Shown piece after piece: positions 273-38,100 of a stretch of 64,000 nt of DNA. Source of the stretch: a virus (Duplodnaviria > Heunggongvirae > Uroviricota > Caudoviricetes); IMG/VR virus record IMGVR_UViG_3300021399_000107, positions 29,173 to 93,172 of that record, one strand, 5' to 3'. A model generated the notes under the pieces. That model was not told the DNA's origin. It did no database searches and worked only from the letters and a program-made list of their open reading frames with translations. A program made the translations under genes and the position numbers. Positions within the stretch are counted from its first letter, which is position 1. Every line of letters begins with the position of its first letter.

Positions 273-4018
<3,746 letters not shown>

Positions 4019-16262: not shown

Positions 16263-16296
16263 AATGCCTGCGGCTTTGCCGCAGGCATTTCTTTTT
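16263..16296 (+). terminator. Rho-independent terminator after tail tube gene
   Basis: AATGCCTGCGGC-TTT-GCCGCAGGCATT followed by TCTTTTT. Confidence 0.8.
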
Positions 16297-16308
16297 GAGG
16301 TAAAAATA

Positions 16309-17235
16309 ATGCTTATAGACGAATACGCTGGTCTAAAAGAGTTGTATGAGGTTGTGGTAAAAGCTACCGCACCAATTACAATCAATGGGCGCCAATTTGA
16401 AATTGGTGAGCCAGTGATGTTTTTTGAGCGTGTCAATATGTCATTATTAACTCAATCTGCATCACCCATTTCCGCGCGCGGTGGTTGGGATAATTTGCCG
16501 CGTGTTGTGTGGGAAAATCGTTCTGACGTTAGTTTCATGATAAATGAAGGCGTAGTATCTAATATGAGCTTAAATTTTCTTTTATCTGCTTCAACAGATA
16601 AAAAAGAAAATGATACTAGCTTTTTTGTTCACAAAGTGGATAAAGTGGACGAACCTATTTTTGTCGATATAGATGATGACAACACTATCTGTATTGTGGA
16701 AACTTCCCATGATCCACACTTAAACCCTCCCTCCTACAAAGCTTTTATTTATCGTGACGATAATGATGTATTGCAGCAAAAATATTATGGGAAGCCGCTG
16801 GATGAAGAACATGCGCGTCATGATTTCTCTGGTGCGGTTATTCCTAGTTTTCAATTATTTCGAGATAAGGCATTAACAGAACCGGTTTTACCTGGTGACG
16901 AAGATGCCAGTTCTCCCTATGTTGTGGATTACTATTATTCTTATGGAGAAGGCACGGCTATTATTTACACCGTAAATAAAGAGCGCTTTAATGGAGTATT
17001 TGCTTTAGAAGGAAAGTTTTATTCTAAAGACGAAAACCGTGGCATTAACAGAACGAATTTAATCTATATGCCACGTATGAGAATTGTAAGTGATATAAAC
17101 TTACGTTTGGGAGAAAGGGCCGATCCAACCACCGCGTCATTCCACATTATTGGTATGCCGCAATCTACAACTGACTACAAGAATATGGTATTGCAAATTA
17201 CCTCTCTTGATAAGGATATAGATGAAGAAGAATAA
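16309..17235 (+). CDS. Tail-tube paralog (308 aa from ATG 16309)
   Basis: Aligns by eye with the spliced tube protein: EYAGLKELYEV vs EKYGIKEVANV; ARGGWDNLPRVVWE vs AQGGWGNPRLVVWD; IVSDINLRL..ADPTT vs VLSDVTITL..GDPST. Confidence 0.7.
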   Translation: MLIDEYAGLKELYEVVVKATAPITINGRQFEIGEPVMFFERVNMSLLTQSASPISARGGWDNLPRVVWENRSDVSFMINEGVVSNMSLNFLLSASTDKKENDTSFFVHKVDKVDEPIFVDIDDDNTICIVETSHDPHLNPPSYKAFIYRDDNDVLQQKYYGKPLDEEHARHDFSGAVIPSFQLFRDKALTEPVLPGDEDASSPYVVDYYYSYGEGTAIIYTVNKERFNGVFALEGKFYSKDENRGINRTNLIYMPRMRIVSDINLRLGERADPTTASFHIIGMPQSTTDYKNMVLQITSLDKDIDEEE

Positions 17236-17301: not shown

Positions 17302-20300
17302 ATGGCTAATAAAACACGTACCGTGTCTTATGAAGTACAATTAGCGATAGAAGGAGCAACAAAACAAATTGCACGCTTGAAGCAACTTTTGAATGATAGC
17401 GTGCGGCCCGAGAGTAACTCGTACAAAACATTACTGAATATGCTTAGTGCGGCCCAACGGCAAGCTGAACGTCTGCAAATGACGGCAAGCACGTCATTGG
17501 AATCCTCTAAAGGGTCAAAAAAGCTAAGCGCCGATCTATTTAAACTTGGCGATTCTATTGATATTATTGTAACGCGGATGCACCAGATTGCTTCTGGTGA
17601 CATAATTGCATCACCAGAAGAGTTGGCGCGCATTGAAGAAATGAGTAACTCAATGGTGAAGATTCGTCAGCAAATGGACGCCTTACAAAATCTTAGTGTG
17701 GGCGATATGTTTGACGAAGGCACCGCTGAAATGCAACAAATGCAAGAGGTTGCGAAACTTTTGGGGCGCGATCTTGACACCATTAATGCTGATAAGATGC
17801 AAGGTGCCATTGGGCACGCATTGGATAAAATCAATAGTGACATTGACCGCACCTCGGCGCGCATAGATGCCCTACAAAAAGTGCTAGATAAAACTACTGG
17901 CATTAATGGGCCGACCGCTTTAGCTGAGATTCAGGCCACCGGTAATAAGTTTGCAACAACGGTAGCCACGAAGGATCAGCAAGAGCGCCAACGTACAGCT
18001 AATGAGATTAACAAAATACGGACTAGTTTCCGTGATGAAGCTGCTGCTCGTGGTTTCCTTTCTCCACGAGACGCTCGACGCGATGTTACAATTTCAGCAT
18101 CTAGCTTTGATAATAAAAACGACCAAACAATTCTTGAAGATCAAATGAACGCGATAGAAGAGTCTGTTGCTGAGCATACCGCAGAATTACAATCTCGCGT
18201 CCAAAAATATAGAGAAATTGAACAACAGCTGGGTGAAATTTGGAAAAATGCGCCAAGAGGACAGCGCACTGAGTATCTTACTCAATTCGCTCAGAAAGAG
18301 CCGCAATTGGGTGCTATTTTAAATCAATTAGGTTATGAAGGAAATGTTGATGAAATTATTGCTAATCGTGGTGGATTAGGAAATACAAATGCTCTTATTT
18401 CTACGGTTCGTCATCAGTTACTAGAACAGGCAAATAATGATGCACAAACTGTTCAAGAAATGGTACAGAAATTAGATCAATATCGCCAACAGCTTGAAAG
18501 CGCTATTTTTAGTAATTTAAGTGAAACGCAAATATTGGAAAAAGCCAATATTAAACCTTTTATTACAAATTTACAACAGTATGTAAATGATTTGTTTGGC
18601 GAAAATAATCCGCTTTCCCAAAGTATGGGACAATGGTTAAAGGATCACGTACAAGCTGGTATGGATGTCCAACAGTTTTATCGTGATTTCTTACAAGAGA
18701 TTATACAAAAACGTAGCGAAATTGAGCAACAAATTCGTTCTGAATCGGATGCTCTTAATAACTTGGGCGGTCAGAAGAATTTGTTGGAAAGCGCTTCTAC
18801 TTCATTAGATGATCAAGTAAAAAAGTTAAAAGATGAGGTTGAGCAGCTCCGCGAACAAATAAAAAAGTATCAGGAGCAACTTGACGCGCTAACAAAAGGG
18901 AAGAAGGCAAATTTTCAACGTGAGGTTGAGACGCCTGGTTCGCCAAATGAGCCGACGCCGGCTGACACCAGCAAGAGAGTCAAGGATACGGGTAATCTCG
19001 TAGGTGCCAACAGCGACAATCTTGCTAACACCGAAAAAGTTACTTCACAATTAGGTAATATTAAATCAGCAATAACCAACTGGATGGGCTTCTATCAGGT
19101 ACTAAATATGACGCGTAGCGCCATTACTAGCATGAAGAATCACATCCAAGAACTAGATCAAGTCATGACACAAATTGCTGTGGTCACAAGTATGACACAA
19201 GAGGACTTGTGGGCGCAGATTGGTACGTACAGCGAAATCGCCCGTCAATATGGTGTAAGTATTAAGGGAGTGTATCAGGTTTCGCAGATCTTCTACCAGC
19301 AGGGTGGTAGTTTTCTGGAAAAATTTCTTTCATTTTCTAAGATTTGACTTTTTGTGAAATTTCTGCTATAATATTTTTGTAAGGCGAGAGAAGAACAAAT
19401 AAAAACACCAGCCTTACAAGGAGATTTCACAAAATGCAAGAGAAAACAATTTATATCAATGGAGAACCAACTGACTACACCGTTCGAGACGACGGAACCG
19501 TATGGAGCAACAAACGACATCGTGAACTTAAAGGTACCTTGGCGCGCAATGCTTATCATACTGTATATCTTATGTTTCACGGTGAACAAAAATGTTTGAT
19601 GGTACATCGACTTGTTGCTGAAGCCTTTTGTCCAAATCCAAATGGTTATACGATTGTTCATCATAAGGATGAGAATAAGCTAAACAACCGTGCGGATAAT
19701 CTGGAGTGGGTTACGAGTCAAGAGAACGCCGTAGCTAGTGTACCTAGTCGCAAGCCATATAAAGCTTATGATAAGCAGTTAGCTGATCCGCAAAAAGAAT
19801 GGCGCGTACTTTCGTGTAATGAGAATTACCTTATTAATAATGAAGGAGAAGTGGCCAACAAAAAGACGCTTACTCTATTACACCAAGCTGATCGTAATGG
19901 TTATAAAAGAGTAAATCTTCAAGACACTCTTTATAGCGTCCATCGTCTCGTCTATGAAACTTTCATTGGCCCTATTCCCGAAGGCATGAAAGTTGACCAT
20001 ATTGATGGCAATCGTTCCAACAACAATGTTGCGAATTTGCGCCTTGTGACGCAATCGGATAATATGCACGCAGCTATGACTAATGGTCATTCTGGTCAGG
20101 TTCCTGTTCTTCAATTTGATAAAGATTGGAATTTTATTCAGGAGTTTCCCAATATCCAAGCGGCCGCAGATGCGGTGCATCGCACGCATCCCGCTATTCG
20201 TTCAGCGATTGAGCGTGGCGGAAAAAGCGCTGGATACTATTGGAAACGTAAAAATAGTGAGCCTTGTGACACCCTTTAATTGCTGGAACATCCTCTAAAA

Positions 20301-23300
20301 TCATGCTATAGGACAATCAGCAGCCAAGCCCATATATGGGAAGGTTCAACGACTAGCCGACTGTCAAGGTCGGGGTAGGCGCAAGCGCGCCGAAATGGGG
20401 GTGGCGTTTTACACACGTTAAGATATAGTCTGATCTTGTAAGAAATTACAAGCTGGAATAATTCCGCTGGCGGCGCAGCGAACCGTCAGGAACGTAATGC
20501 TACAAACAAATGATGTCATGACGTTAACAACGGAAACGTTGAAGATGGCGCGCATTGCGGGCATTGATTACGCAAAGGCGGCCGATTATATGACAACCGC
20601 TTAACGCAATAGGTGGTTTAAAAGTGTTTTAATTGCTGGAAAACATTAAAGCCCAAATGCCACAAATAAAATCATTCCGTTTTATATTGTGGAACGAAAG
20701 TAGAAACAAGTTTTGGGATGGCGCATGGTATTAAACCTAAACGTTAAAAATATGAAATCAGCAGCCAAGGAGGAATATATATGGCTAATAAATTTTCTCT
20801 TGAAGAATATAAGAATCGTATTGATATGTTTTTTCCTGATTGGAACTATGAGATTTTAGAGTTTAATGGTTATAAGCAAGCGGCTAAAATTTTATGTAAA
20901 AATTGTAATAATATTTTAATTTATAAGAAAGCTTGTGATATTAGCAGAAAATTAAATGTGTGTAAATGTTATCACAAATTTAATAATTATCACGAAAAAT
21001 TAATATATCTTGGACAAGTCAATGGTTTTACTATTCTGCATGATGAACCAAATAATATGATAAAAACAATTCGTTGTGACAAGTGTAATACTATTATGGA
21101 GCGCTCTTTAGTATCGCTTCTTAATACGCCATTTCATTGTGATAAGTGTAATGCTTATCGAAAAGGGCAATTTCATTATAACATTGAAGAAGCTCAACAA
21201 CGTTTAGATACAGCTACTAATAATGAGTATCAATTATTGCAGTATAATGGTATTAATAAAGAAGCCGTTTTGCGACATTTAAATTGCGGTTTTATTTTTA
21301 CTATTCGTGATTTAAATGATATTTTTATTGGTAGAAATCGGGGTTGTCCAAAATGCTATCAATTTAAGTCTAAAGGTGAGCAAAAAATTGCAGCTTACTT
21401 AGATAACAAAAATATAAAGTATATACCGCAAAAAACATTTACACCATTAAATAAAAGTAAATATCGTTTTGATTTTTTTCTACCCGATTATAATTTAGCA
21501 ATTGAATATCAGGGAGAGCAACATTATCGTGACAATTCTTGGTTCAAAGATGATTTAAGTACGATTCAAAAAAGAGATCAAATTAAAAGGCAATATTGTC
21601 AAGAAAATCATATTAATTTATTAGAAATTAGTTATAAAGATTATAATATTATTAGCCAAATATTAGACTCACGGTTCAACGACTATCCTTTTATGGGAGT
21701 AGAGGAAAGCTCCTCGAAATAAACACTACCAGATGGTAAAGATATAGTCTGATCTTATTAGAAATAATAAGCCGTATGTTATACGCGCATAATTTAGCGA
21801 ATTATGTGGAACATTAATGATCCGCGGTTTCAAATTGGAAATGACCGATGCTTCCCACGTTACTGACGTTTGGAGTGCATTGGCAGCAAAGACAGCATCA
21901 GATACAGAAGAGTTGGCAGTCGCTATCAGTAAGACGGCATCGTCCGCCGAAGCTGTGGGCGCAAGCTTCGAAGCTACTTCTGCAATGATTGCAACGATGG
22001 TCTCCGTAACGAGAGAGAGTGCCACGAACATCAACATTTGACTTTTTATTAAATATTTAATAAGGAGTTACCGGTGTCCTTATGAGATAATACATAAATC
22101 ATAAGTGAAAACCTTCTCTGATTGACTTGGAGTTCCTAATAATAGAGGATAACAGGGCGGAAGATTGGTTTAAATACCTTTCACCGTGAACGACTAAGTG
22201 AGAAGGCACCTTTTCTGAAGGTGGTGCGATAGTCTAAACTCCTACTATAACTATTATATTTTTTGAAATAGGGGAAGAAGGCAATTTTGTCTTCTATAAT
22301 GCGGTACGTCACTCAAATCGGTTATCTCACGATACGGAGAAATGACAAGTGATCCCTCAAAGCTAACCGACAGTGAAGGCGAAGCAATGGATCTGAACCG
22401 TGTCGATAAGGCTTTGAAAACAATCGGTATTACGTTGCGTAGTGCCACAGGACAATTCCGTGAATTTGATGACGTCATCCTTGAATTGGGTGAAAAGTGG
22501 AATCAAATTGATGTAAATGCGCAACGTTATATCGCCACGATAATGGCTGGCAACCGTTATGATTTGTTGGCGGTTGCGTGAGCAGCCTTAATAATGAACT
22601 CAAATTAAAATGACGTGAATTGCGGGAACATCCTTAAAACTATTTTCACTAAGCACAAGCAGAAATGTGTTGTGTGGTCACAGTAATGAAGTTGGGTATA
22701 GTAAAAGCAGAATAGTTTGGACAATCCGCAGGCAAGCATCTTTTATGTTTGACTTTTTTCTTTTTTTGTGATATAATAAAAGAAAAAAAGGAGAACAACG
22801 CTAATGTTTAAAAAAATAATCTTAGATGGCGAAGTAACACGATGGTCAGTAAATGAAGAAGGGCAAGTAAGGAATGATGAGACGGGGAAATTTCTTACGG
22901 GTAGTATTCTTCAGACTTATAGATACATAAATTTTAGATGGAATCATAAGCAAAAGAATAAAGCAGTTCATAGATTAGTTGCTGAAGCTTTTCTTCCTAA
23001 TCCTGAAAATTTACCTTATGTACATCATATTGATGGAAATAGGTTAAATAATAATGTAGAAAATTTACAATGGGTTACTCAAGAAGAGAATCAATCTCAT
23101 AGAAAAACATATACAATTCATGCGCCTCAAAATATTATAATTGAAGGCCAGGAAGAGTGGCGTAATTTTAGAGATACGGTTTATCAAGTTTCTAATTATG
23201 GACGCGTGCGTAATACTAAAACAAATAAGATACTTAAAGGTTGCTTAGAGGATTGCGGGTATTATACAATTAAAATTCCGTATAACGAGAAAAAGCGTAA

Positions 23301-26300
23301 ACGTTTTTTCATCCATCATTTAGTTTATGAATGTTTTGTATCTCCTGATTATGATGTGATAAATCACATTAATGGGGATAAAACTGATAATCGTGTAGAG
23401 AATCTAGAAAGTGTTTCTCATAAAGAAAATATGATCAAAGCTGCAAATGAAACTAATGCTTGGCATTTTAGAAAAGTTGCACAATATGATAAAGAAGGAA
23501 ATTATATACAAACTTTTCTTAATGCTTCTGACGCTGGACGTGCCATGGGTATTTTACCTAGCAGTATGCGTAATTGCATTAGATTAAGGGGCGGCCGCCA
23601 TAAAGATTTTATTTTTAAATATATAGAAAATGAAGATGAAGCTTCATCGGCCATCTCAGAATGAGAGTAAAACCGGTAGGGTTTGAAGGACGTCACACTT
23701 ATTTAAGTGATAATATGGTCAAAGCTAAAATGAAAATTTTAGAGACGTATTTATTAATACGTCTTTTTTATATATTGACGCGGAAACGCGTTGAGTGACT
23801 CTGCAACAGAGCCGGTTCCTTGCCCTCGTCAGCAATATTGATCAGTACAAAAATGCACTATCTATTGCACAAAATGCCGAAGGCGCAGGTGAACTACAAA
23901 CTTTAAAGACCTTGGACTCATTGGAGTCTAGGATTGAAAGGCTAAAGGTTACAGTACAAGAGTTCTACACCAGTTCTGGCCTTGAAGCCTTATATAAGAG
24001 CATTATAGATATTATTACTAACGTAGTCGGCGCAATGAATAACTTGCCAAAAATTGGTGAGAAATTCCCTGCGGCGGCTCTTTCTATTGGTTTGGGTATT
24101 ATTGGTAATGTTAAGAATGTATTGACAACATTAATTAATGCGATTAAGCAAACTTTTGATAATATTGAGGAGGAACATAAAAATCACGGAAAGCGTACCA
24201 CAACTCAAGCGTATAAAGATGGTAAAGCATCAGCAGAAGCCTTTGCAAGAGGGCAAAAAGACGGAGCGAGTGGCGTTGAGGGTAGCGCTGAGCCTAGTTC
24301 TGGTGAAGTTGAGAAAGATACGCGTACTTTTTTGCAAAAGTATGGCACGGCGTTGTGGCGGGGTGTTTCGGTCGCTCTTTCTGCAACCAGTATGTCGCTT
24401 AACACAATAGGTCTAAATCAGTATGGTGCTTCGACCAGCATTGATGAAGATTTGTCTGCGGCTAAGAAGCTAGGCTGGGGAACGTTAGTCGGTTTAGGCG
24501 GCGATGTCGCTACTTTTGCTACGCAATGGATAACAAAAGATTATATTGGCGCGATAACCACTGCTGTTACGGGAGTAACAAAAGCCTTTGCTGGATTGTC
24601 TAGTGCAATTTCTATGGCGACGCCCTCAATGGAACGTCAAATTGAGTTAGCAGAAAAGAGAGTGCAATTGGCTCATAATGAAGCAGTTCTAGCTCGTGGT
24701 GAAACAAATGATTTACAACAGGCTATTATTCAGTTAAAGCAATTAGAAAAACAACAATATTCTTCTAACGAAGCCATGGAAGAATATATCAATTATCGTA
24801 ATCAAGTGGCGACACAATTTCCTCAATTAATTGATGGATATGATAATGAAGGTAACGCTATTATAGATTTAAGTGATGATTATTTAATTTTAAATAATAG
24901 TATATTAAAAACTTTACGTTCAGAACAAAAAGAACGTAAATTACGTGTTGAATCGCTAAATATACAACAACAAGCGGCTCAGCAAATGTTAACATCTAGA
25001 CATTTCTTTTCCGGTTCCTCTACCACCCTTCCAGAGGCACTACGAAACGCTTTTTCGTTAAATACTCTTCACAATTATGAGACTGGTATACATTGGAACC
25101 CTGATAATAAATATGCTAGCGTTACAGATATAGATGCGTTTTTAAAATTTTTAAACGATGATTTGGAAGATACTAGTTTAGATGACTCTTCTACTAAGGT
25201 ACAAATTTTACAAACCTTATATCCTGATTTAATGAATGGTATCGCTCTTCCTGATGCGACAGATGCACAAAAGGTTGCTATTGAAGCAATTGCAAGCGCC
25301 AAAACAGATCAAGACAAGGTAGAAGCTGCTGCACGCGCAATTACGTTATTAAATGATAGTTTATCAGAATATTATAAAGTACAATTTGAATTAGCAAATA
25401 AAAATTATGCTATTATAACTGCTGATTTAAATATACAAGAATCTATTAATAATAAAGAATTAGGTAATTTATTAACAACTAATAAAACAGTTGCTGCTAT
25501 ATATCAAGAAATGTTAGATAATTTTTATGAGACGCAAATGTTTTTTAACGAAGCAACCGGATCTTGGAATTTAATAAATGATGCTGAAGGTTCATGGAAT
25601 ATTTTAAAAGATTTAAATATTTCTTATGAAGAGTTTCTTGCAACCCAAACAGAAAGTTTTCTGACGCAATTTGCAATTTTGCCCAAAAAAGCACAAGATG
25701 CTATTGAAAATTTATATAATGAGAGAGATACCTATTCTTCTTTTGATGTTATAGAGGCAGAATTAAAAAAATATAACGTTTCCGAATTATATATTGCATC
25801 TTTTCGTCAATCTTTTATAGACGCTCAAGAAAAAGCAACTCAATATTTACAGAATGTACAAAATTATTATTCTACGCATATGCCTGATCTTAATTTACAT
25901 TTAGATGATATTTTAAATTCAGAATCTGCTGTTTTACAAGGATTACCCGCTGTTATACAGACTTGGATAGGTTCTATTTATGAAAATATTGCTAATCAGG
26001 TGGAAACTGGTGCGTTATCAATAGATGCAGCAAATAATTTAAGTGATGCTTATTTTGATTTATTAGAAAACATTCAAATTATACCAGATGAAAATATTAA
26101 AAAAGCATTATTACAACAGTTGTCCTCGGTTGATATGTTTGATGCATATGCTATAGAAGATTTTGTTAAAAATGCAGAAGGAGTCCCGCAAGAAACTGCT
26201 CAATCTTTATTGGATTGGGCTGGACAAGTAGGCAAAAGTTTTTTAAGTATTCGTGATCGTGCAGAAAAAAATATTAAAGATGCAGCAGAAAAATTAACAA

Positions 26301-29300
26301 AAATTAATCAGCAAGCAATTAATGGCATGGATAGCTATGATGACTTGGATACGTGGTTGCGCGCACTACGGTCACTTAACGATAAGTCATTAGGCATTAT
26401 TAGTATAACTAATTCAGACTTGTTTAATTTTAAAGACGGTAAATTTATTCCAACCGCTAAAGCTGTTGCAGCTTATCGCACTTCTGTTATGGAAAAATTA
26501 AACAAGCAACAGGAAGATTATTTAAGTATACTAGATCGTATTGAACAAGAACCAGAGATTCTTCGTGATTGGAATGATAACGCTGATAGGCCGACAATTT
26601 TAGACTGGTCTGAATCAGCTTCGGAAGCAGAACAGCGAATAGCCGAAGAAGCCGCTAAAGTTTGGAAACAAGTACAAGAAGAAGCGGCAGACAATTCTTA
26701 CTATAACATTCAAGATAGTTTTGAAAAGCTCATGAAAGAGCGTATTCAAGAGTTATCGCTTGGTTTAGACGCTAATTCTATTGAACGTATGCTTAATTAT
26801 GCGTCAGGTATGGCAGTACAGTGGGTTGACTTTTTATCACACAATGGAGTTACAGAAGCTGATTTAAGAGAACAGTTGGGCGTTGCCGGCTATACTGATG
26901 CAATGACTGATGCCTTTATTGCGAGCATTACACAGGGCGGCGAAGCTGCTATACGTGCAGTAGAGGACTTGTATAAAGGCAAGGGTATAAAATTAACTAC
27001 TGACCAACGCCGCACTCTTTATCGCGCAACAATTGACCCTTTGATGTCAGTTTTCGATTCTTTCGATTCTCTGTCTATTGGTCAATTCGTGGATGACGAA
27101 GTAGCTAACGTTATTTCAAAATATGGTCTTGGGAGAGTAAACGGCAACGTAATTCAAAGCCTTATTGCCCCGGCCAAAGCCTATAAGATAATGTTAGATG
27201 CTATTGCAGCTAATGGACAGGCGACTGCTGATGAGGTTTTGAAATCAATAGCATTTGAAAAGACTCAAACAGCGGATAAGCTAGACAAAGTATTATCAGG
27301 CTTAACTGGTGGCTTTGATATTGAAGAGTTCGTAAATATTTTTGGCGCAGATTTAGCTAAACAATTCCAAGATGATGACCTATTTGGTTTTAATGAAGCT
27401 ACGGGAAAAATTGTCGCAAACGCAGGCGTGGATATTAGTGCAATTCTTAGGCAGGCTGGTTTCGACGATAATTTGATCAACACGCAGGCCGTAAAAGACG
27501 CGCGCGCATCTATTCGACAGAGCGCAATAGATACTGCAACTAAGGCTGCGCAAGATGTCGCCTCTGCTATTGATAATTTGGCTGGCGCGCAAAATGGTGA
27601 TTTAGTTGACATTTCTGCTTTAATAGATAAATATGATTTGAAGCTAGACGACAATATTATTGATGGTGTAGTATCTATTCAAAATGGTGCAGTTGAGATT
27701 ATCCGACAAGTTATTGCACAAATAGAGCAAAGTAAGAAAGAAGATGATAAGACAACTGAATTAGAACTATTGAAGTTGAAAGATGCGCTCAATTCTATTA
27801 TCGCTCAGTACACTTCCTTAGTTACTAATGGAATTGCGGGTTCGTTAACGCATGAGGGCTTAGCTCAACTTATGGGCGGCGGTTTTGAAGAATTGAAGAT
27901 TAATCCAGCTGGGCTACAGGTACAAGAAACTGCCGAAGGCTTGAAATTTTCCAATGATTCCTTATTACAAATTTACGATGCCGTTCGTACTACTCATGTA
28001 AAAATTGCCGAAGAAATTAGTAACACGCTTATTCCTCAAATGACGAAGACCGGTGCTGTATGTGAAACCATTGAAAAAACAATGACTCACATGCGCGACC
28101 TCCAGCAAGAAATTGCTAAGGCAGATGACACTCGTAAATCTGCACTGAGCGCGCAATTGGCTATCACAAGAGAAATCGCATCTCAGCAACTTGCTGACCC
28201 CAGTTCCTTCAACTTTATGGATCGTAATCTACCTAATGGTATGCAAAATGCGATCAACTGGTGGAACAGCGGCGCGAAAGCCTATTCAGCGATGAACAAG
28301 GCTTCGGCTTCCGGATATATGGCTGTTGAAGATTACTATAACATGGTTACTACCATGAGCGAACTTATTCAACGGTCTAATTCTGATATTGAATGGATGG
28401 GCATTAGTGCAGAAAATGCTACTACCAAAGCAGCAGAATTGATTCAAGCTGGTTTCAGTTCTTTTACTGCGTTAGATGATGGCGAAGTAAAAATTAGTAT
28501 GCAAAAGTTGGCTGAAGCGATGGGAACCGGCGCAATAGATATGAAGACCGGTTTCGATGAAGCGTTAAAAATTATGGCACAAGAGCAGGTTGATATGCTT
28601 GAAGGCCAAATTAAGATGCTAGAAACTTTTGCAAAGATTGAAGAACTTGGCGAATCCTTAGAAACTGATGGTGTTTTTGATTTTAGTAAACTTTTTACTG
28701 ATGACCGTACAGGTTTCACAGATAAGGGACAGACATTTGTTGATCAGTTGTTACAACTAGAAGGCATCGGAGATATTAAAATTCGTGTTGGCGTAGATGG
28801 CGAAGCAATTTCAATTAAAGATCTAGTTAAAGACATAAGTAAAAATGGTTACGCTGATGCCCTTACTAACTTTATTCGCGTTGCCATATCCGATGGTTTT
28901 GATGGTGATACGATTCAGGCGCAATTAGAAAAGTATACAGATTCAGATGGCATATTAGATGTTAGCGGTTTGGCGCAAGAACTGTCTGCTACTGAAACGA
29001 CTGGAGTAGAAAATTGGACTACGGCAACAGAGAAAGCGCTAGATGCTTATAAAACTACGGTAGATGCACAATTACAAGAGCTGGATACAATTTTAAGTAG
29101 CTATTTTACAAAATTAGAGTCGAATAATCACAAACACCAAGGTGTCGAACCTAGGCCAATAGCATTGGACGATCCTTACGGCGCATCTAACGCAGATACG
29201 TCAGTTTCTTTAGCTCAAGATAATTCTGCTTTATTAAAACAACATGAACAAGATGTTCAAGAAAAAGCTACTTTACAAACTACAATCGGCGATCTTGAAG

Positions 29301-32300
29301 CTGCTGTACAACAACAGCAAATCGAACACGAACATCAAATTCAAACTCTTACAGAAGAAAACGCTGCATTAGCGCAAGAAAAAGCACAAAATGAGGCCGC
29401 TTGGGCGGCTGAAAAAGAAGCTATGGAAACCGAAGCGGCGCAGAGCGCTGAGGCCGCGCAAGCTGCTATAACTAATGTAACTAATAGGTATCTTGAACAA
29501 GAAACAAAAAATCAGGAACTAGAAGAAAATTTAATTAAAGTACAAAATCAGAATCGTGCTCTAAGTCTAACAATTGCCGATCAAGAAAATTTAATTACTA
29601 ATTTAACTGCCGAACGAGACGCAGCAGAAGCGGCGCTATCTGAGTCTCAAGAAGAAGTTATTAAGCTACAGCAAAAATTACAAGAAGCCAAGGAAGACTA
29701 TGCTAGAGCTGAAAGTAATTATGCCGATGCTGAAAGGCAGCTGCAAATTCAAAAAGACCAATTAGGTAATAATTCGTCAAATGATGTTATAATCGCTGAT
29801 TTAAAAGAGCAATTAAATACAGCGCTGAATGATAAAAATAATGCAGAAGCTAGATTACAAGAAACTACGGCATTACTTGATCACATTTATGATCAATATG
29901 ATGCTAAAAATGATGAACTATTAGCGACACAAATTGCTTTGGCTGAAGCAGAAAGTCAATTAAATAATCTGCAACGAATAGTTGCTATGCAGCAATCCGC
30001 AGATTTAAGACAACAACAGCAACAAGAATTTGGAAATGTAGCAACTGAATCGGCGCGCTGGCATCCAAATATTAATACTGCTAATCAGCAACCTACTGTT
30101 ATTGTTAAAGAAGAAGATAATGAAGTGGGTGATGAGCATTTACGTGAAGCGGAGAGAGAGCGTTTAGCGGATCAATTAAGACACAGAGAAGAAGCGCAGA
30201 CAATTAAACAACAGGCTGCTAATAATCTCGAAAGCGCTCAAATAGAACAAGCAATTAGTTATATCATGGATCTGTTTAAGCGCAATCATGATGCTCTTAT
30301 AGCTTCTAAAGATTTATCTAATAAAGAAGCTAAGGAAACATATACTGCCACTTATAAAGAAATTATATCTTTAATGGGACGCGAAACGCTAAGTGCACTA
30401 ACAAAAGAATATAATAGAGTTTTAGACGAAACAGGCAGTGAACAAAATGCGCTTGCAGAAGTTCATAGAACTTATCTTGGTGTTATCGGAAAAGAAAAAA
30501 GCAATTTAATTGCATTAATTAATGCTACAAATAATAGTAATATAGGTATTAATAGAGTAGGTAATGCTTTAAATAATTTAGCTGTAAAAGTTAATTCTAC
30601 CGCTTCTGATATTAGTACTAGTATTAAAGCTCTTAATAAATTAAATCCAGTATTAAATAATCCTACAATGGTTGCGTTTGGAGATACAAGTGCTACTGGT
30701 AATGTTGCTCTTGCCAAAGGCACTCTTATGGGTGAACTTGGCCCAGAGCTTTGGGTATCCAATGGTCACTATCATGTCGCTGGTCAAAATGGCGCAGAGT
30801 TTGTTAATCTGCCAGATGACGCCATTGTATTTAATCATCAACAGACCGCTAACCTACTTAAAAATGGGCACGCGACTCGCGGTAAGGCGATAACTTCTGA
30901 AAAGAACGCTATTGCACAAGCCAAAGGTAATGTTAATGGCGGCCCAGCAATGGTTAGCGCGAAGCAAGCAGCCGCAACCCTGCGCAAGATTCAGGCTGAG
31001 TGGCAAGCTCTTATTGATGCTGATGCCCGCAACCTAGGCTCTCTCGCAGGTCGTGGTGGCGGCGGTGGAGGAGGCGGTGGAAATAAGGATTGGCAACCTA
31101 AAACCACCTCCGGTGATATTCAACGCTGGTATAACCTCTTGCGGCAAATCGCAAAATTAGAGGAGCAAATTACATATCAAGAAACCTTACAAAGCAAGTT
31201 GGAAAGCGACAAAGTTGCGCGCGGTAATGAACTCTATCAAAGCTATCGAAAAGAACTCGATTTGCTTGATGCTGAGATTCGCCGCAATAATTATCTTGCT
31301 GAAATTCAGAAGTCTTGGTATGACGCAAAACGTGAAGAACTGGCGCGTTCTGATTATGGTCGCATCTTCACTTACGACGAAGAAGGGCTTCAGCAGTATG
31401 TGGGTAATAGTAAGCCCGGTAGCGGACTTGGACTCGACATTCTGGAAAACCTAAATCGTCGTGATATTTATGGTAAAGCCATAGACAATGCCGCAACCGC
31501 AGAAGCGCAATTACGTTATCTGCAATCAGTCGGCTTTAATATTGATAACCTAAAGTATAATGATGATGGTACGATGATAGAGACTGTGGGAAAAACTGGC
31601 GAAGAGCTTGCTGATGCCTATGTCTCTATGATGGAAAACTTCTGGACAGCTGTTGACGGCTGGCGCGATGAACTCGACAATTTGTATGATTCTTACCATG
31701 AACAGCAAGAAAAGATTCTGACAAATCAGCAAAAGCAAAACGAACTTATTCAAAAAGTAATTGACAATCAGATTACATTGGAAAATAAGGTTCTCGATGC
31801 TCTTACTGATATGCGACAACGAATGATAGACGAGCTACAAGACCAAAAGGACGCGCTAAGTGATGCCGCGGATAAGTATGTTGATGGTTTAAATGATCAG
31901 CTAAGCAAAGAACGCGACATGTATAGCAATCAGAAAGATCAGGATGAACTAACGAAGTTGCAACGCCAGTTAGCAATTTTGCAACGTTCTGGTGGCTCTG
32001 GTTCGCAAATTCGTAGTCTACAAAGTCAGATTGATAGCAAGATGCAAGACCAATACTTTAATCAGCAGCAACAACAGATTGATGCGATAAAGGAAGCATC
32101 TGATGCACAACTTGAGCGCCTAGATAGACAAATTGAACTCATAACCGAAACCTTAGCTTACGAAAAAGATAATGGTTTACTTTGGCGTGATGTGTATGCT
32201 GTAATGGAGGGGACGCCAGCAGAGATTACGTCATTTATTACAGCCAATGATAAGGAATTGCAAGCTAAATCCGCGCTACAATGGGAAGAAGATACGAGAC

Positions 32301-33253
32301 AGACCTTACAAGAAGCTGAGATATTCAGAGCGCATGTTGTAGATAACATGAACAATAATAATGTCGAAGTTATGCAACAGACTACTGATTTTAGCTTCGA
32401 GATGACAGAACGATTTAATGAACTGATTGATACTACCAGTAGCGGCAATGCTGATATTGTACATGCTGTCGTGAGTGGACAATCGGGCGGCGGCTCTGGC
32501 GGCGGAGGAGGAAGCTATGGTGGCGGCTCTAGTAGCAAAAAAACCGCTCCGATCGTTAACGCTAAACCGGCAGAAAAAAGTTATGATGAAGCAGTAAAAT
32601 TTAGTAACGATTCGGCAAAAAAAGCTACAACAAAAGATAGCAGCGCTGATACCGCGGCATTAGAAACACTTAAACAAAAATATATTAAAGCAACTCAAAA
32701 TTATTATAATGCTATTTTTACAGAATATAGAGGTCGACGTGGCGCAGGCGTGTTATTAAATAAATTAAAGTCAGTGGTAGACTCTGGAGTAAAAACATTA
32801 CAATATTCGACTACGACTCCAATATTAGAAAAGAATTATAAAAATTTATATGAACAGATGGATCAATGGTATAAAAAGTTGTTTGAATTAGATGGTTTCT
32901 CTTCCGGCGGCCTTATCGACTTCACTGGTCCCGCAATGGTTCACGGTTCAAAAACTAAGCCTGAGTCTATTTTCAGCGCAGAAGATACCGAATTTTTACG
33001 TACAGAGTTACTTTCTAACGTAAGAACGTTGCCGTCTATCGTTCGTGGTTTTGAAGCCATTCTAGGAAATTATGTCAATAGTAATAACTATAATACAATC
33101 TCTAGCGGCTCAACCATTGAACATGCGGAAGTAAATATGTACGTACAAAAAATTGATAATGATTATGATGCTCGTCGAGCTGGCGAACGAGCTCTTGATG
33201 CTATGGTTCGCATTGGTCGCAAGACTGGGCCGACAAGTGTTTCAAGGAGGTAA
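17302..33253 (+). CDS. Tape measure protein, split by 4 group I introns; spliced ~4007 aa
   Basis: Exons 17302-19305, 20500-20601, 21820-22031, 22302-22557, 23804-33253 total 12024 nt. Joins FYQQG|LQTND, MTTA|IRGF, ATNI|GTSLKSVISRYGE, AGNR|QQSRFLAL rebuild a TP901-type TMP core. Also coiled coils, GELGPEL motif and C-terminal SGGLIDFTGPAMVHG; upstream of Dit. Confidence 0.92.
19344..19372 (+). promoter_or_regulatory. Sigma70/SigA-type promoter inside intron 10, upstream of HNH ORF
   Basis: TTGACT-N17-TATAAT with extended -10 TG; same motif as four minus-strand promoters. Confidence 0.85.
19434..20279 (+). CDS. Intron-encoded HNH endonuclease with duplicated HNH domain (281 aa)
   Basis: Two copies of VHRLV..AF...P....V.H.D.N..NN...NL; C-terminal NUMOD1-like repeat; RBS AAGGAG. 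Confidence 0.9.
   Translation: [281 protein letters not shown]
20602..21819 (+). mobile_element. Group I intron 11 (TMP-I2) with Zn-ribbon/Vsr-like endonuclease ORF, 1218 nt
   Basis: P1 ACCGCT/GGTGGT; TAA at intron start; full core motifs; ends in G21819. Confidence 0.92.
20781..21722 (+). CDS. Intron-encoded endonuclease, Zn-ribbon repeats plus Vsr/DUF559-like domain (313 aa)
   Basis: FPDWN..L N-terminus and SKGE.KI..YL...YRFDFFLPDYNLAIEYQGEQHY shared with 1463-2452; RBS GGAGG. Confidence 0.8.
   Translation: MANKFSLEEYKNRIDMFFPDWNYEILEFNGYKQAAKILCKNCNNILIYKKACDISRKLNVCKCYHKFNNYHEKLIYLGQVNGFTILHDEPNNMIKTIRCDKCNTIMERSLVSLLNTPFHCDKCNAYRKGQFHYNIEEAQQRLDTATNNEYQLLQYNGINKEAVLRHLNCGFIFTIRDLNDIFIGRNRGCPKCYQFKSKGEQKIAAYLDNKNIKYIPQKTFTPLNKSKYRFDFFLPDYNLAIEYQGEQHYRDNSWFKDDLSTIQKRDQIKRQYCQENHINLLEISYKDYNIISQILDSRFNDYPFMGVEESSSK
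22032..22301 (+). ncRNA. Group I intron 12 (TMP-I3), ORF-less, 270 nt, variant core with expanded P1 loop
   Basis: P1 ACAT/GTGT and P10 CGGTA/TACCG (IGS TACCGGTGT); R GTGAACGACTA, S GCGATAGTCT; ends in G22301. Confidence 0.88.
22749..22777 (+). promoter_or_regulatory. Sigma70/SigA-type promoter inside intron 13, upstream of HNH ORF
   Basis: TTGACT-N17-TATAAT with extended -10 TG; RBS AAGGAG downstream. Confidence 0.85.
22804..23664 (+). CDS. Intron-encoded HNH endonuclease with duplicated HNH domain and NUMOD4-like segment (286 aa)
   Basis: [29 protein letters not shown] and IHHLVYECF...[17 protein letters not shown]; WRNF....[10 protein letters not shown]. Confidence 0.9.
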   Translation: [286 protein letters not shown]

Positions 33254-33258
33254 AAGGA

Positions 33259-35097
33259 ATGGCACAGAATGGACATGACATGGGTGCAATTCACGGTCAA
33301 GCATCGGGCACTCCATTTGTATCCAATTCTGTTGTTTCTTCTCACCCTCAAGTTTATATGGCTACCCATGACGGGGAAGGCAATCGCCTTCCCCTCATGG
33401 AACGCTCATTCATAAGCTTCACATGGGGAGATAAAGCGATAGAGGATTTTGGCGCTATTTCGGTTTCAGACGGAAGCCGCTATACGCGCAACACCGTAGC
33501 TAATTTTGAAGACCACACAACACAATATGAAGCTATTGATGGGCAGCTTTATTGGGGCACCCATTTTACAAATAATGAAATGACTTTTTCGCTAGCGACT
33601 GATGGTATAACAGAAAAAGAGTTGGCCGATTTTAAATTTTGGTTTAAACCAGGAATTTGCCGCGAGCTTATCTTAGCTGAGAATCCTAATCGTGCGATCA
33701 TGGCGCGCCTAGCAGAGCCACCTTCTTTTTCTTTTGTTCCTTTTGATTATGATATCGAACGTACCATAGGCGCGCGCACCTATACCACAAAAACAACTCG
33801 ATATAAGGGCGAAATCACGCTTAAATTTGTTATGGACGAACCGTTTTGGTATGGGAAAAAGGCTTATTTTGATTATGAAGAAAAGAAATATGCAGATGAT
33901 AGCGCGAAAACGACTGTGCTTGATGACCCAGATTTTATAAAGGTTATGGTCGAAGATGGAATCCCGCATGTAGAGGAAATGGGTGATCCATCGAATGTAA
34001 TTATGGCAAATGGCTGCTACATTGATTTTTCTACCGGACAAAACTCTGGTTTGGTAGCCAACGATACAGATACCACAGACTTACATACGCCGAGTTCGCT
34101 AGTTACAACTGACTCCGTAGAGGCCAGCGAAGTTTTTGATGGTAATAACGCATTTGTAGGTGTTGTAGTTAGCACAATGGATGGTAATGATGGTTTCAGG
34201 TTATCGCGCAAGAGTACCAATTTAGGCGACTATCGTTATCTTTATTATGCAGGAACCGCGCCTTCATTGCCAACCAAGCTCGCATTTAGTTTTGTACCTT
34301 ATCCTAATCCAGTAGCAGCAGATCACCATGTTTATTTGCCGGCTAATACAATGGCAAAAAATACTAGATCTTATCCTTTAAATGGTAGAGTTTTTTCACT
34401 TTTAGAAACCGGTAATCCATATAACACTATTCAAATAGGCGATAAACAATTCAGTTTCTCGCTTCCAAATATTTACAAAAGTTATAATGATGTGATACAA
34501 CTTTTTTCTGAATCTACAACCACCTATGCGAATCGTATTGCGACTCAAGAAAAAGTACGTTTACAAATTGCGCATCCGGCTGTAAGAAAGTGGGCGTTGA
34601 ACTGTCTCGAACTAGATACTCACTTATGGAGCGCCGTCAATTATAGGCGTCTTTTATGCGCGCTAATGGCTCCTATGTTTTATGCTTCTGGCTTTACAGG
34701 GGCACACAGTGGGAATACTTTTAATATTCTATTAGACCCAGAAAAAGTTTACGAATGTAGTTGTAATTTTAATTTAAAAATTGGTACTGGTACTTGTACA
34801 TATAAATACAATACTTGGCCTGATGGTATGGCGACAGCGATTGCGAGTGACACTGATTATCAAAATTTTATTGCGGCCTTATCTACAGCCGTTGCCGCTA
34901 CTCTCGTTGAAGAAACCGCCGATTGCTGGGATATGGTAATTAGCAACGATCTTTCTATTGAGCGCACAGGCGAGCCTATCCTTAGCATTGAAAATTGCCT
35001 ATTAGTGACTACTGATTATGTAGCCGCAGATTACATAGACGCAGATCGACAAGGACTTTATAATGTCGCTATCGAGTTTCAGAATTTGTATTATTAA
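33259..35097 (+). CDS. Distal tail protein (Dit), enlarged (612 aa)
   Basis: Follows TMP; N-terminal half fits a Dit-like fold (SFTWG..., G.L.WG...), followed by a long extension. Confidence 0.65.
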   Translation: MAQNGHDMGAIHGQASGTPFVSNSVVSSHPQVYMATHDGEGNRLPLMERSFISFTWGDKAIEDFGAISVSDGSRYTRNTVANFEDHTTQYEAIDGQLYWGTHFTNNEMTFSLATDGITEKELADFKFWFKPGICRELILAENPNRAIMARLAEPPSFSFVPFDYDIERTIGARTYTTKTTRYKGEITLKFVMDEPFWYGKKAYFDYEEKKYADDSAKTTVLDDPDFIKVMVEDGIPHVEEMGDPSNVIMANGCYIDFSTGQNSGLVANDTDTTDLHTPSSLVTTDSVEASEVFDGNNAFVGVVVSTMDGNDGFRLSRKSTNLGDYRYLYYAGTAPSLPTKLAFSFVPYPNPVAADHHVYLPANTMAKNTRSYPLNGRVFSLLETGNPYNTIQIGDKQFSFSLPNIYKSYNDVIQLFSESTTTYANRIATQEKVRLQIAHPAVRKWALNCLELDTHLWSAVNYRRLLCALMAPMFYASGFTGAHSGNTFNILLDPEKVYECSCNFNLKIGTGTCTYKYNTWPDGMATAIASDTDYQNFIAALSTAVAATLVEETADCWDMVISNDLSIERTGEPILSIENCLLVTTDYVAADYIDADRQGLYNVAIEFQNLYY

Positions 35098-35122
35098 AGT
35101 GGAGTAAAAGGAGGAAAACATA

Positions 35123-38100
35123 ATGAAATTAAAACGTAATTACGAACTTTCATTATGGACGCTTCAAGATACATACATAACTGTCTTGAAGCCGTATGAA
35201 TTAGAAGCGCGCAATAGGATACAAGAGCCAGATTTGCATGTAAAAGATGACGGTACGCTGGAATTTTCTTGCAAAATCCCAATGTATATCCACGAGTGCG
35301 CGACCAATGAGATGCAAGAGAATCCAATTTGGTATAACACACAAAATGGAAATCTCATTGCTGATATGCGTAAGCTAAAAGTTATTTTTAATAAAAATAA
35401 TGTTGACCCTGATAAATCAACGGTTTATGAAATTCTTATCACAAAAGTTACCGAAGAACATGAAGGTATGGAAACATGGTGTGAAATCAACGGTGAAGGA
35501 TTGGACTTCCATGAATTAGGAAAAATAGGGTTTAAGACCGAACTCAATGCAGATTTGTATAATTATGATTGGGCCACATGGGCTGATAGCGAAGAGCTAG
35601 TCGCAGATGCAGAACCTATTAATAACATTGACTATTGGGTCAGTAAGCTACGATTAGCTGATATTGGCTGGACATATGAAGTGCGTATGGATTGGAGTTG
35701 CTACCCTGGTGAGCTTGCTACTAATAAGGTGTATGAAGCGCCATATGTTATTGCATGGAATGTAAATACGGATACTAGTGCGGTAACTCCCAGTGATAAT
35801 ACTAGTGCGGTGGAAAAGCGTCGCATAGTGGATACGAACGAAAGTAACTACTATAATATTACGCAAACGATAGCAGAAACATTTGGAGTCTTTTGCCGCT
35901 ATGAGCGTAAATATGATAGTGTTTATCGGTGCATTGAGAAAAAAGTTGTCTTTTACAATAACTTTTTAAATGAAACCGAAGGCCCAATCGACATTAACTA
36001 TTCTTTCGATACAGAACATATAAGTCGAGAAAAGGATAGTACTGATTTGGTCACGAAGCTATTTGTAAAAACACTTAATGATGAAAATATGGAATCAGGT
36101 TGGGCAGCAATAGGTGACAGCGCAGCAAATAAAAGCGGTGAAGACTATATCCTAAATTTTGACTACTTGCGTGCCATCGGAACAATTTCGCAAGATCAAT
36201 ATGACGAGATTGCGGTATATGAAAATCAGATGGCGGTTTATAACAAGATTTTAAATACGCAAAGCACCATCATCCAGAATATAGATACACGTTTGCCAGA
36301 ACTAGAAGCCCAAAAAACAGTTGCAGAAAACGGCATTATATTGGATAAAGAACGTATTTCTGCTGCGGACGACCTCTTGCGCGCCGTTACAAACAATACT
36401 GGCGTAGTTGAAATCACTGACGCACGACCAGCAATCGCATACACAATTGCTGAAGGAACAAGTTCCGTTCCTACTTATATTGTAATTCGGCAGGAAGGCG
36501 TAATTGTAGACGCATCGTTAAAACTATATCAAACGTATAATGCAGCCGGACAAGAGGGCCAAAAACTATCAAATCAAATTTCATCTTATACCTGTGAATT
36601 TGATGAATTTGGTAATTTAAAAAAGATTTCACACCTTAATGTTCAGGCATCTACGCCTGTTTATCTTATATATAAATATGACCCTCAACTTGAGCAAGAA
36701 AATGTTAAGAAAACTTGGACTGATAGGTTAGCGCGCGATGAGGGCGAACTAGCACGCCTGGGAGACCTTATCGAACAATTAGAAACCGACCGCGCGGCAG
36801 CGCAGACATTGTATGACGAAACACATGCACAAAAAGAAGCCGCCATGTTAGCTTTCACTCGACTAATGGGGCCCGCACTTCGAGAAGGATATTGGCAGCC
36901 AGAAGACTCCTATGGAGATTATGGCGATAAATATTATAATACACTCACAAGCTCTGAGCCGCAAAAGAAATTAGCTACCCTTATATTGGATAGCTATCAC
37001 TTTGAGGGAGAACAGCTCGCTTACTATTTGGATGGTGTCAATCAAATTCGTAACTATTATCCTTATATTGACCTATCGCGAGTGACGTTTACGTCTGGAA
37101 AAACATGGTCAGATTTACTTCACGCATCTTTTTGCTTCCGTAGTATTGAGCCAGATACCAGTATCCCGAGTTCAGATAATCGTTATTGGGTGAATTGGCC
37201 AGTCGGCGCATCCAGTCAGCTAGTGTATTTAAAGGTGGGCGCCAATGGCGCACCTTTTCCAGCTCTTCTTCTTACTGGCGTTACATCGCTACCTATGGAT
37301 ATTACTACTGATGATGTAAAGTATGCTGAAACACTTGCGCGCGAAGCTCAGGTGGCTATTGTAGAGACTACTGTAGGACAAACCGGTGTAGAAATGACCT
37401 TAACAAAAGTGTTAAATAGCGTTACGGTTGTAATACCACAGAATCCTACTATTGTTTGCTATCCGCGTGTTCATTTAGATACTCCAAACTTAAAAACAGG
37501 TGACGATGATGTTATTGTAAAAATGGGCACCGAAAAGATTGACCGTTATAGTGGCTATTCATTGCTAAAACAGGGGCGCATTAATCCTGCTGGCACGGTT
37601 ACTGACTACAATAACAACTATTACATTACACTTACGACAGATAACTATATGGTAAAGAGCGAGGGCGGCATCGGTGCTGTTACTGTTGGCTATACGGTTC
37701 CAAATACACCAACGGCAATTTACCTTGACGCGCGCGAAGTTTCGCGTGAAAACGCATTTCCAAAAACCACCTATACTGTTGACCCTACCTTTACGAAAGA
37801 TAGCTTTTTGGATGTTTCCTCTCATTGCCTAGGCCGCATTGTACATATTAACGATACGGACTTGAAGTTTGATCATGTACGAGGCTATATTTCAGAAATT
37901 GAGTTGAATTTAGATAAACCTTGGGAAGACCAAATCACTATTACAAACTATCGTACCAAGTTTGAAGATTTGTTTAGTACTATCGTTGCGCAGACGGAAG
38001 AGATGAAGAAAAGCTCCTACGTGGTGAGTTTGGCTTCTGGTATTTTTACACCTAAAGGCGAAATTGCAGAAGACGCTCTATATGATTCTATGCGTCATGC

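Follow-up and report, generated by a model that had tools for sequence, protein, structure and literature searches.

Four putative group I introns in the conserved core of a 4,007-residue tape measure protein gene from a ruminant-gut phage

The tape measure protein (TMP) gene has been called a frequently interrupted gene, and in the Vibrio phage ICP1 it is split by introns with HNH-3 endonucleases whose splicing was demonstrated by RNA-seq (Barth, Dunham and Seed 2023, PMC10448857). The group I introns TMP-IVS1, IVS2 and IVS3 are known from TMP genes of Bacillus cereus-group prophages (Tourasse and Kolsto 2008, PMC2504315). Here we analyze a TMP locus in a stretch of 64,000 nucleotides (nt) of viral DNA, referred to as the window, which corresponds to bases 29173-93172 of the single 165,344-bp virus record IMGVR_UViG_3300021399_000107 (CheckV completeness ~96%) and is contained in sheep, bovine and goat gut/rumen sequencing runs. 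The locus, at 17302-33253 on the + strand (15,952 nt), very probably represents the TMP gene of an SPbeta-like phage that was invaded by four separate mobile group I introns (numbered 10 to 13) at invariant motifs of its core, and full splicing would yield a protein of 4,007 amino acids (aa). Intron-split TMP genes have already been published for B. cereus prophages and ICP1, and the present locus is a dense case of this known phenomenon. What is particular to it is the presence of four introns in one TMP gene, the size of the protein, and the resolution of the mosaic of insertion sites.

The B. cereus-group prophages resemble the window in having IA-type group I introns at several sites within the conserved part of the TMP, in guide-based retargeting, in the occurrence of different introns at one site, and in a mosaic of intron presence and absence among related phages (PMC2504315). 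They differ in carrying two introns per gene at most, at three sites, in a TMP of ~1,200 aa, whereas the window has four introns in one gene of 4,007 aa and its family at least six sites; in addition, three of the four introns in the window carry intact endonuclease genes. ICP1 likewise has endonucleases of the HNH_3 class inside its TMP introns, and its endonuclease content varies while the site stays (PMC10448857). It differs in being a myovirus that infects a Gram-negative bacterium, in having one or two endonuclease inserts, and in that its splicing is demonstrated, whereas splicing of the window introns is predicted. Further parallels are orf142 of Twort, a tail tube gene with three group I introns, and SIOphi, in which a late structural gene likewise combines several group I introns with short internal exons (PMC3073962, PMC11878797). 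The three Twort introns are mutually similar, whereas the four of the window share only short core motifs; exon skipping has been observed in Twort and SIOphi, whereas in the window the frame-preserving skips are read off the nucleotide sequence. For neither precedent do the texts consulted show a functional role of the skipped product.

Gene structure and position of the introns

Open reading frames (ORFs) on the + strand of the locus encode, in order, 681 aa (17302-19347), 281, 313 and 286 aa, and 3,152 aa (23795-33253), in addition to two short products (74 and 79 aa). A search with the beginning of the longest ORF returned 55 relatives, most of them 3,400-5,300 aa long and nearly all with a PF10145 domain. 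Thirty uninterrupted homologues were mapped onto the window by tblastn, and each was collinear on the same five pieces, which are the exons. At all four junctions (YQQG/LQ, MTTA/IR, ATN(I)/GT and AGNR/QQ, with slashes marking the joints) the protein is continuous with respect to the homologues, with zero gap or insertion. Joined together, the exons (2004 + 102 + 212 + 256 + 9450 nt) give 12,024 nt, which encode 4,007 aa followed by a single terminal stop. Removal of the introns restores one frame, and the junctions agree with the uninterrupted homologues residue for residue. An earlier note on this DNA, made from the sequence, had claimed a TMP of ~4,007 aa in a 15.9-kb locus with four introns in 4.5 kb, and the 30 collinear homologues and the 12,024-nt frame bear this out. 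Its figures for intron phases (0, 0, 2, 0), for skippable segments (34, 156 and 190 aa) and for a 681-aa product of read-through into intron 10 also proved correct.

Both megablast with 17302-24000 and tblastn with exon 1 gave zero matches in the GenBank phage collection, exon 1 recovered zero relatives from IMG/VR, and the TMPs of Enterococcus VRE9_2 and Staphylococcus phi575, compared by tblastn, were too distant for placement of the junctions.

All features of the gene lie on the + strand, and the four introns span 4,498 nt. Exon 1 (17302..19305, 668 aa), whose end was placed by alignment with the homologues, closes with YQQG and has T as its last nucleotide; its N-terminal part is ~27% identical to the homologues, while its final ~70 aa open the conserved core and end in an invariant YYQQG. 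Intron 10 (19306-20499, 1194 nt, group I, phase 0), placed from the RF00028 match and the homologue boundaries, ends in TAATG. We considered an alternative 3' splice site for this intron at the end of the Rfam model (20452), which was rejected, as it shifts the frame and is contradicted by all homologues. Exon 2 (20500..20601) contributes 34 aa, from LQTN to MTTA with a final T, and matches positions 31-64 of the PF10145 profile. It is followed by intron 11 (20602-21819, 1218 nt, group I, phase 0), which opens with the codon TAA and ends in TTAATG. Exon 3 (21820..22031, 212 nt) corresponds to profile positions 67-130 and ends with the first two bases of an isoleucine codon, ATC, that is divided AT/C by intron 12 (22032-22301, 270 nt, phase 2), an intron with no ORF that ends in ATAATG. 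Exon 4 (22302..22557, 256 nt; profile 135-198) ends with AGNR and again with T, and intron 13 (22558-23803, 1246 nt, group I-type, phase 0) ends in CTCTG. Exon 5 (23804..33253), of 3,149 aa plus the stop, starts with QQSRF and contains long stretches without an alignable counterpart among the homologues. All four 5' exons thus end in T, and all four introns in G.

The domain matches follow the same order. Exons 2, 3 and 4 match PF10145 consecutively, exon 3 alone with 39.8 bits (cut-off 33.2), and the uninterrupted homologue P0007 scores 103.7 bits against this family. TMP families of the PHROG database are matched by exons 3 and 4 and by the start of exon 5, and the phrog_4211 profile runs on from position 840 at the end of exon 4 to position 842 at the start of exon 5.

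Every intron has an in-frame stop 0-13 codons past its 5' splice site, and the 681-aa ORF is exon 1 read on into intron 10, where the stop lies 13 codons past the splice site. Such stops would halt ribosomes on unspliced RNA. It could be proposed from this that the introns act as a brake or timer, such that four splicing events limit or delay a protein needed in few copies and the 681-aa N-terminal product of unspliced RNA has a separate function. The 681-aa ORF does exist, and exon 1 is a separately conserved unit among the homologues. However, most relatives encode their TMP in an uninterrupted gene, the tube gene of this phage, whose product is needed in high copy number, is interrupted several times as well, which argues against a dosage logic, and early in-frame stops are a general trait of phage introns. 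We therefore consider a function of this kind improbable.

Identity of the spliced protein to the 30 homologues is 0.57-0.77 at residues 601-950, and elsewhere mostly 0.1-0.3 or not alignable, apart from smaller peaks near residues 3151-3250 and 3551-3650. The four intron sites, at residues 668/669, 702/703, 773 and 858/859, are all inside this PF10145 core. Columns that are invariant among 26 relatives, some of them only 33% identical, include YYQQG/L at the intron 10 site, G138 beside the intron 12 site, and R222/Q223 at the intron 13 site. The calculated probability that four random insertions in a 12-kb coding sequence fall within 570 nt is ~4e-4, and the clustering is therefore real. Within TMP and tube genes, group I introns are known to insert where conservation is highest, and introns and homing endonucleases persist at sequences common to all potential recipients (PMC2504315). 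Insertion at invariant PF10145 motifs would be expected if these elements spread best through sequences that all relatives have in common, and homing of mobile introns to invariant sequence would explain the clustering more simply than any tuning of protein length. A model of the core (AlphaFold2, 26-sequence alignment) has 13 helices, with a mean predicted local distance difference test score (pLDDT) of 90 and a predicted template modeling score (pTM) of 0.87, so the core is predicted to be a compact folded helical domain and not an extended ruler. Compared with the PDB using Foldseek, the model had no match at E 0.001, and the weak top rows were designed helical repeats.

Group I features and mobility of the introns

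In searches with the group I intron model RF00028, intron 10 scored 86.1 bits, intron 11 33.4 bits (E 8e-6, below the gathering score of 50) and intron 13 18.4 bits (E 0.28). The ribozyme core of intron 10 occupies 20197-20452 and its 3' splice site lies another 47 nt on; in introns 10, 11 and 13 the 3' splice site is 47-61 nt past the end of the Rfam model, which is consistent with extra P9 hairpins. Internal guides pair with the exon ends in three introns. In intron 11, P1 comprises 7 bp between the end of exon 2 and the guide GGTGGTT (intron positions 11-17). The guide of intron 12, ACCG-GTGT, gives a 4-bp P10 and a 4-bp P1. For intron 13, the end of exon 4 pairs over 8 bp (P1) with the guide GCGGTTGC, located at positions 13-20, and the start of exon 5 pairs over 6 bp (P10) with the adjoining TTGTTG. 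In intron 12 the elements of a group I core follow in the order P3, P4-P6, P7, P3', P8 and P7', with CCTTCTC/GAGAAGG as P3, GACTA/TAGTC as P7, and a hairpin as P8. An orthologue of intron 12 interrupts the identical split codon in the relative L074, with a core that is 73% identical, and in a consensus fold of the two sequences 10 of the 44 pairs are kept through changes on both sides, including pairs in P3, P8 and the 5' hairpin.

Three of the introns contain endonuclease genes on the + strand. The ORF of intron 10 (19434-20279, 281 aa) and that of intron 13 (22804-23664, 286 aa) have HNH_3, NUMOD4 and NUMOD1 domains of homing endonucleases according to Pfam and PHROG, and the two proteins are 33% identical. 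Intron 11 encodes a homing or HNH-type endonuclease (20781-21722, 313 aa) which matches phrog_559 and other homing-endonuclease families; a further intron of this genome has an ORF that shares 33% identity with it. None of the four introns is a close copy of another: the parts they share are core motifs of only 37 nt, and intron 12 matches nothing else in the genome. A relationship of introns 11 and 13 as paralogues was considered and rejected; the two resemble each other in guide and target site, but the remaining intron sequence and the endonucleases are unrelated. Genome-wide there are 17 RF00028 matches, and the TMP gene is therefore one of several invaded genes and was not singled out.

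It was also observed that in each of the four metagenome runs the read depth over 20310-20355, 19342-19374, 22617-22793 and 22971-23147 is 5-20 times as high as around these segments, and that loose ends are numerous there. Such short pieces of intron cores and HNH genes also occur in many other elements of ruminant-gut communities.

The presence of introns at these sites varies among related phages. A DNA contig from the bovine gut run X4 covers intron 10 and exon 2, joins position 20601 to 21826 through ATTCGT only, and continues into intron 12. ATTCGT provides the exon codons for Ile-Arg, so this contig lacks exactly intron 11 and contains introns 10, 12 and 13. As evidence from runs X4 and X5 we used this bridging contig only, and not the uncovered parts. 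Since the contig is DNA and lacks precisely intron 11, it confirms the boundaries of this intron; it also follows that exon 2 is no separate unit in that relative. Truncated TMP ORFs from other assemblies end after a few foreign residues past YQQG (P0057, P0060, P0062 and P0063), past ATNI (P0065) or past AGNR (P0058 and P0059). The relative L073 has a single intron, at the site of intron 13, with an endonuclease that is 69% identical to that of the window. In L052 there is a LAGLIDADG insert behind core position 128 and an HNH insert at the intron 13 site, the latter 42% identical to the endonuclease of the window.

In L074 (2362-2403), the first 11 bases of an intron after the residues QRY (TAACGCAATAG) are identical to those of intron 11; this intron then has an AATTGCGGGAA core motif, and its guide, GTATCTT, fits this other site. 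Together with intron 11 it looks like one intron lineage that was retargeted through its guide sequence. Among the 70 relatives found in IMG/VR with a peptide-pattern search, which disfavors split genes, an interrupted core occurs only in L052. The LAGLIDADG insert of L052 (6391-7353, 963 nt) has no Rfam group I match and may be an unrecognized intron type or another kind of insert; searches of L052 and L064 against Rfam returned nothing at E 0.01, although L052 has two endonuclease-bearing inserts.

In total, at least six insertion sites occur within ~250 codons of the core across this phage family. Because the introns are dissimilar, because the relative in X4 lacks intron 11, and because other combinations occupy the same sites in other phages, the four introns look like independent mobile elements. 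The endonuclease ORFs of introns 10, 11 and 13 and the presence/absence polymorphism at fixed sites were both seen, and homing of these introns is probable.

Exon skipping and tail length

Loss of exon 2 (34 aa), of exons 3 and 4 together (156 aa) or of exons 2-4 (190 aa) preserves the reading frame; loss of exon 3 alone or of exon 4 alone causes a frameshift. The earlier note had suggested that this arrangement might generate tail-length variants. In this reading, regulated skipping of one of the three segments would give shorter functional TMPs and tails of different length. Exon skipping by phage group I introns, which the note invoked as precedent, is indeed documented for Twort orf142 and SIOphi (PMC11878797, PMC3073962). 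The end of exon 2 (CAACCGCT) can also pair in all eight positions with the intron 13 guide when the latter is offset by one base (GGCGGTTG). The frame pattern itself is unremarkable, as at least three of four introns share a phase by chance with p = 1/3, and the frame-preserving exon sets would be an incidental outcome of three phase-0 insertions. Moreover, the skippable segments coincide with the peak of conservation and contain helices of the domain predicted at a pLDDT of 90 and a pTM of 0.87, whole helices of which are deleted with the loss of 34 or 156 residues. None of the ~66 relatives with a fully covered core lack these segments. The exon modules are not conserved either, given that intron 11 is optional in a close relative and that other sets of introns occur elsewhere, and the four introns of the window are dissimilar, compared with the three similar ones of Twort.

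The expected effect on the tail would also be small. At 0.15 nm per residue, a rule established for lambda-like tails and carried over here to the phage of the window, a TMP of 4007 residues would correspond to a tail of ~600 nm. The several hundred nm given in the earlier note are thus a reasonable inference, and the ratio is similar in the Thermus phage P23-45, where a TMP of 5,002 aa accompanies a tail of ~800 nm (10.1101/2022.12.01.518664). The TMPs of P23-45 and P74-26 (5,002 aa, tail ~0.8-1 um; 10.1101/2022.12.01.518664, PMC10034513) are of the same order of size as that of the window. The TMP of P23-45 has an N-terminal RNA polymerase, whereas Pfam found no extra domain in the TMP of the window, and a sequence relation between them is not established; the P23-45/P74-26 gene is not reported as intron-split, unlike the gene of the window. 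Skipping would shorten a tail of ~600 nm by only 5, 23 or 29 nm (0.85-4.7%), and since the core is predicted to be a folded domain, the logic of 0.15 nm per residue need not apply to it. Regulated tuning of tail length by exon skipping is in our view highly improbable. The TMP of ~4,007 aa with four group I introns in its conserved core was upheld, while the splice-generated length variants are unsupported: the core is conserved and predicted to be folded, no relative lacks the segments, the frame pattern has a chance probability of 1/3, and the effect remains below 5%. Were it correct, the exon-skipping idea would give phages their first structural phenotype due to alternative splicing by ribozymes, but the evidence points the other way.

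The second pairing of the intron 13 guide bears on two further explanations. Because this guide can bind the end of exon 2 as well as that of exon 4, some transcripts might join exon 2 to exon 5, and a TMP lacking 156 aa of the core might be incorporated into tails or regulate their assembly, giving two tail forms. We regard this as extremely improbable; if true, it would mean that alternative splicing driven by ribozymes has a structural phenotype in a bacterial virus. Alternatively, skipping may occur at a measurable rate without any function, with cross-reacting ribozymes producing core-deleted or frameshifted transcripts and products that are wasted or mildly harmful. The cross-complementarity of guides, as between intron 13 and the end of exon 2, the short internal exons of 102-256 nt between ribozymes, and the precedents of Twort and SIOphi (PMC11878797) agree with this. 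On the other hand, the earlier-transcribed introns probably splice before intron 13 exists, and the dissimilarity of the introns speaks against cross-reaction. Functionless skipping is thus possible but rather unlikely.

We favor full removal of all four introns from the late transcript, which would leave the single frame of 4,007 aa, with any exon skipping a by-product of splicing that gives a core-deleted and probably defective protein. Several points weigh against this explanation. Self-splicing of the four introns is something that we infer from their sequence; contigs of the one metatranscriptome run, X7 from sheep gut, gave small pieces on exon 1 and introns 10, 11 and 13 and no spliced or skipped joint, which is uninformative on splicing, as carry-over of DNA is possible. 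Introns 12 and 13 are below Rfam significance, with intron 12 alone returning nothing from Rfam even at E 10, and no convincing P1 was located for intron 10. The core was modeled as a monomer, and its predicted compact fold may be lost inside the tail tube. Finally, an in-frame ligation of exon 2 to exon 5 with loss of 156 aa is chemically conceivable, and in another phage gene skipping affects 47% of transcripts, as found for SIOphi (PMC11878797).

The tail module and the wider family of tape measure proteins

The genes around the locus resemble a tail module of the SPbeta type. Upstream of the TMP gene of L073 there are SPbeta-type YomW, YomV and YomU_Tube genes, and the genes of L073 map onto the window in the same order, namely tube, tube-like, TMP and tail tip. 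A YomU-type tail tube gene, identified by tblastn with L073 genes, covers 12886-16234 on the + strand in at least four pieces (12886-13545, 14628-14726, 15012-15086 and 16109-16234), with homing-endonuclease ORFs between them at 13630-14541 and 15277-15984; the same gene is uninterrupted in L073. It is followed on the + strand by a tube-like paralogue of 323 aa (16264-17235; phrog_2729), which is 19% identical to YomU of L073. Downstream of the TMP gene, putative tail-tip genes (33259..40900, + strand) encode a 612-aa protein with a faint match to PF05709 Sipho_tail (15.1 bits, E 0.027) and a 1,925-aa protein with a sub-threshold match to PF06605 Prophage_tail (29.5 bits). The sheath family PF04984 has no match in the genome. 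Together, the continuity of the PF10145 and PHROG matches, the synteny with L073 and the absence of a sheath match indicate that the gene is the TMP of a large SPbeta-like phage of ruminant guts with a non-contractile tail, where the SPbeta-like assignment rests on tblastn to L073 and on the precomputed annotation of that relative.

Two further observations concern the genes upstream. The position directly before the TMP, which is the usual place of tail assembly chaperones, is taken by the distant tube paralogue (16264-17235), and no frameshifted chaperone pair was identified beside the TMP. A homologue of a 398-aa gene of L073 (9703-11267) is interrupted at 10167/10470, where RF00028 has a match (10157-10468), and is thus another intron-split structural gene.

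Giant TMPs among the relatives (P0004, P0005, P0026, P0027, P0032, P0039 and P0043-P0054) include several with cell-wall-binding or related domains, among them choline-binding repeats (PF19127/PF01473), PG_binding_1 (PF01471) and SH3 domains (PF08239/PF06347); none of these were found in the TMP of the window. The cell-wall-binding domains point to Gram-positive hosts and to TMPs that may be more than rulers. A Firmicute of the rumen is the probable host of the phage in the window.

Many relatives have TAG codons in frame in their TMP cores, as many as 8 per 251 codons, in place of the Q of others. They occur in L003 (6001-6753), L004-L007, L010, L013-L015, L032, L040, L066 and L071, and in-frame TGA occurs instead in a few (L059, L065 and L069). 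P0059 is obtained by translation from L073 only with TAG read as Q. Recoding of stop codons is thus a frequent feature of this family of phages. In the window, the TMP has zero in-frame stops under table 11.

Gene callers report the locus as a 681-aa ORF, three endonucleases and a 3,152-aa ORF, and so miss the actual tape measure of 4,007 aa; the same applies to many relatives. A family of tape measures of 3,400-5,300 aa can now be placed in phages of ruminant guts, whose tails would measure roughly 0.5-0.8 um. As a well-resolved case, the locus illustrates how a short invariant stretch of a structural gene serves as the landing pad for many independent mobile introns.

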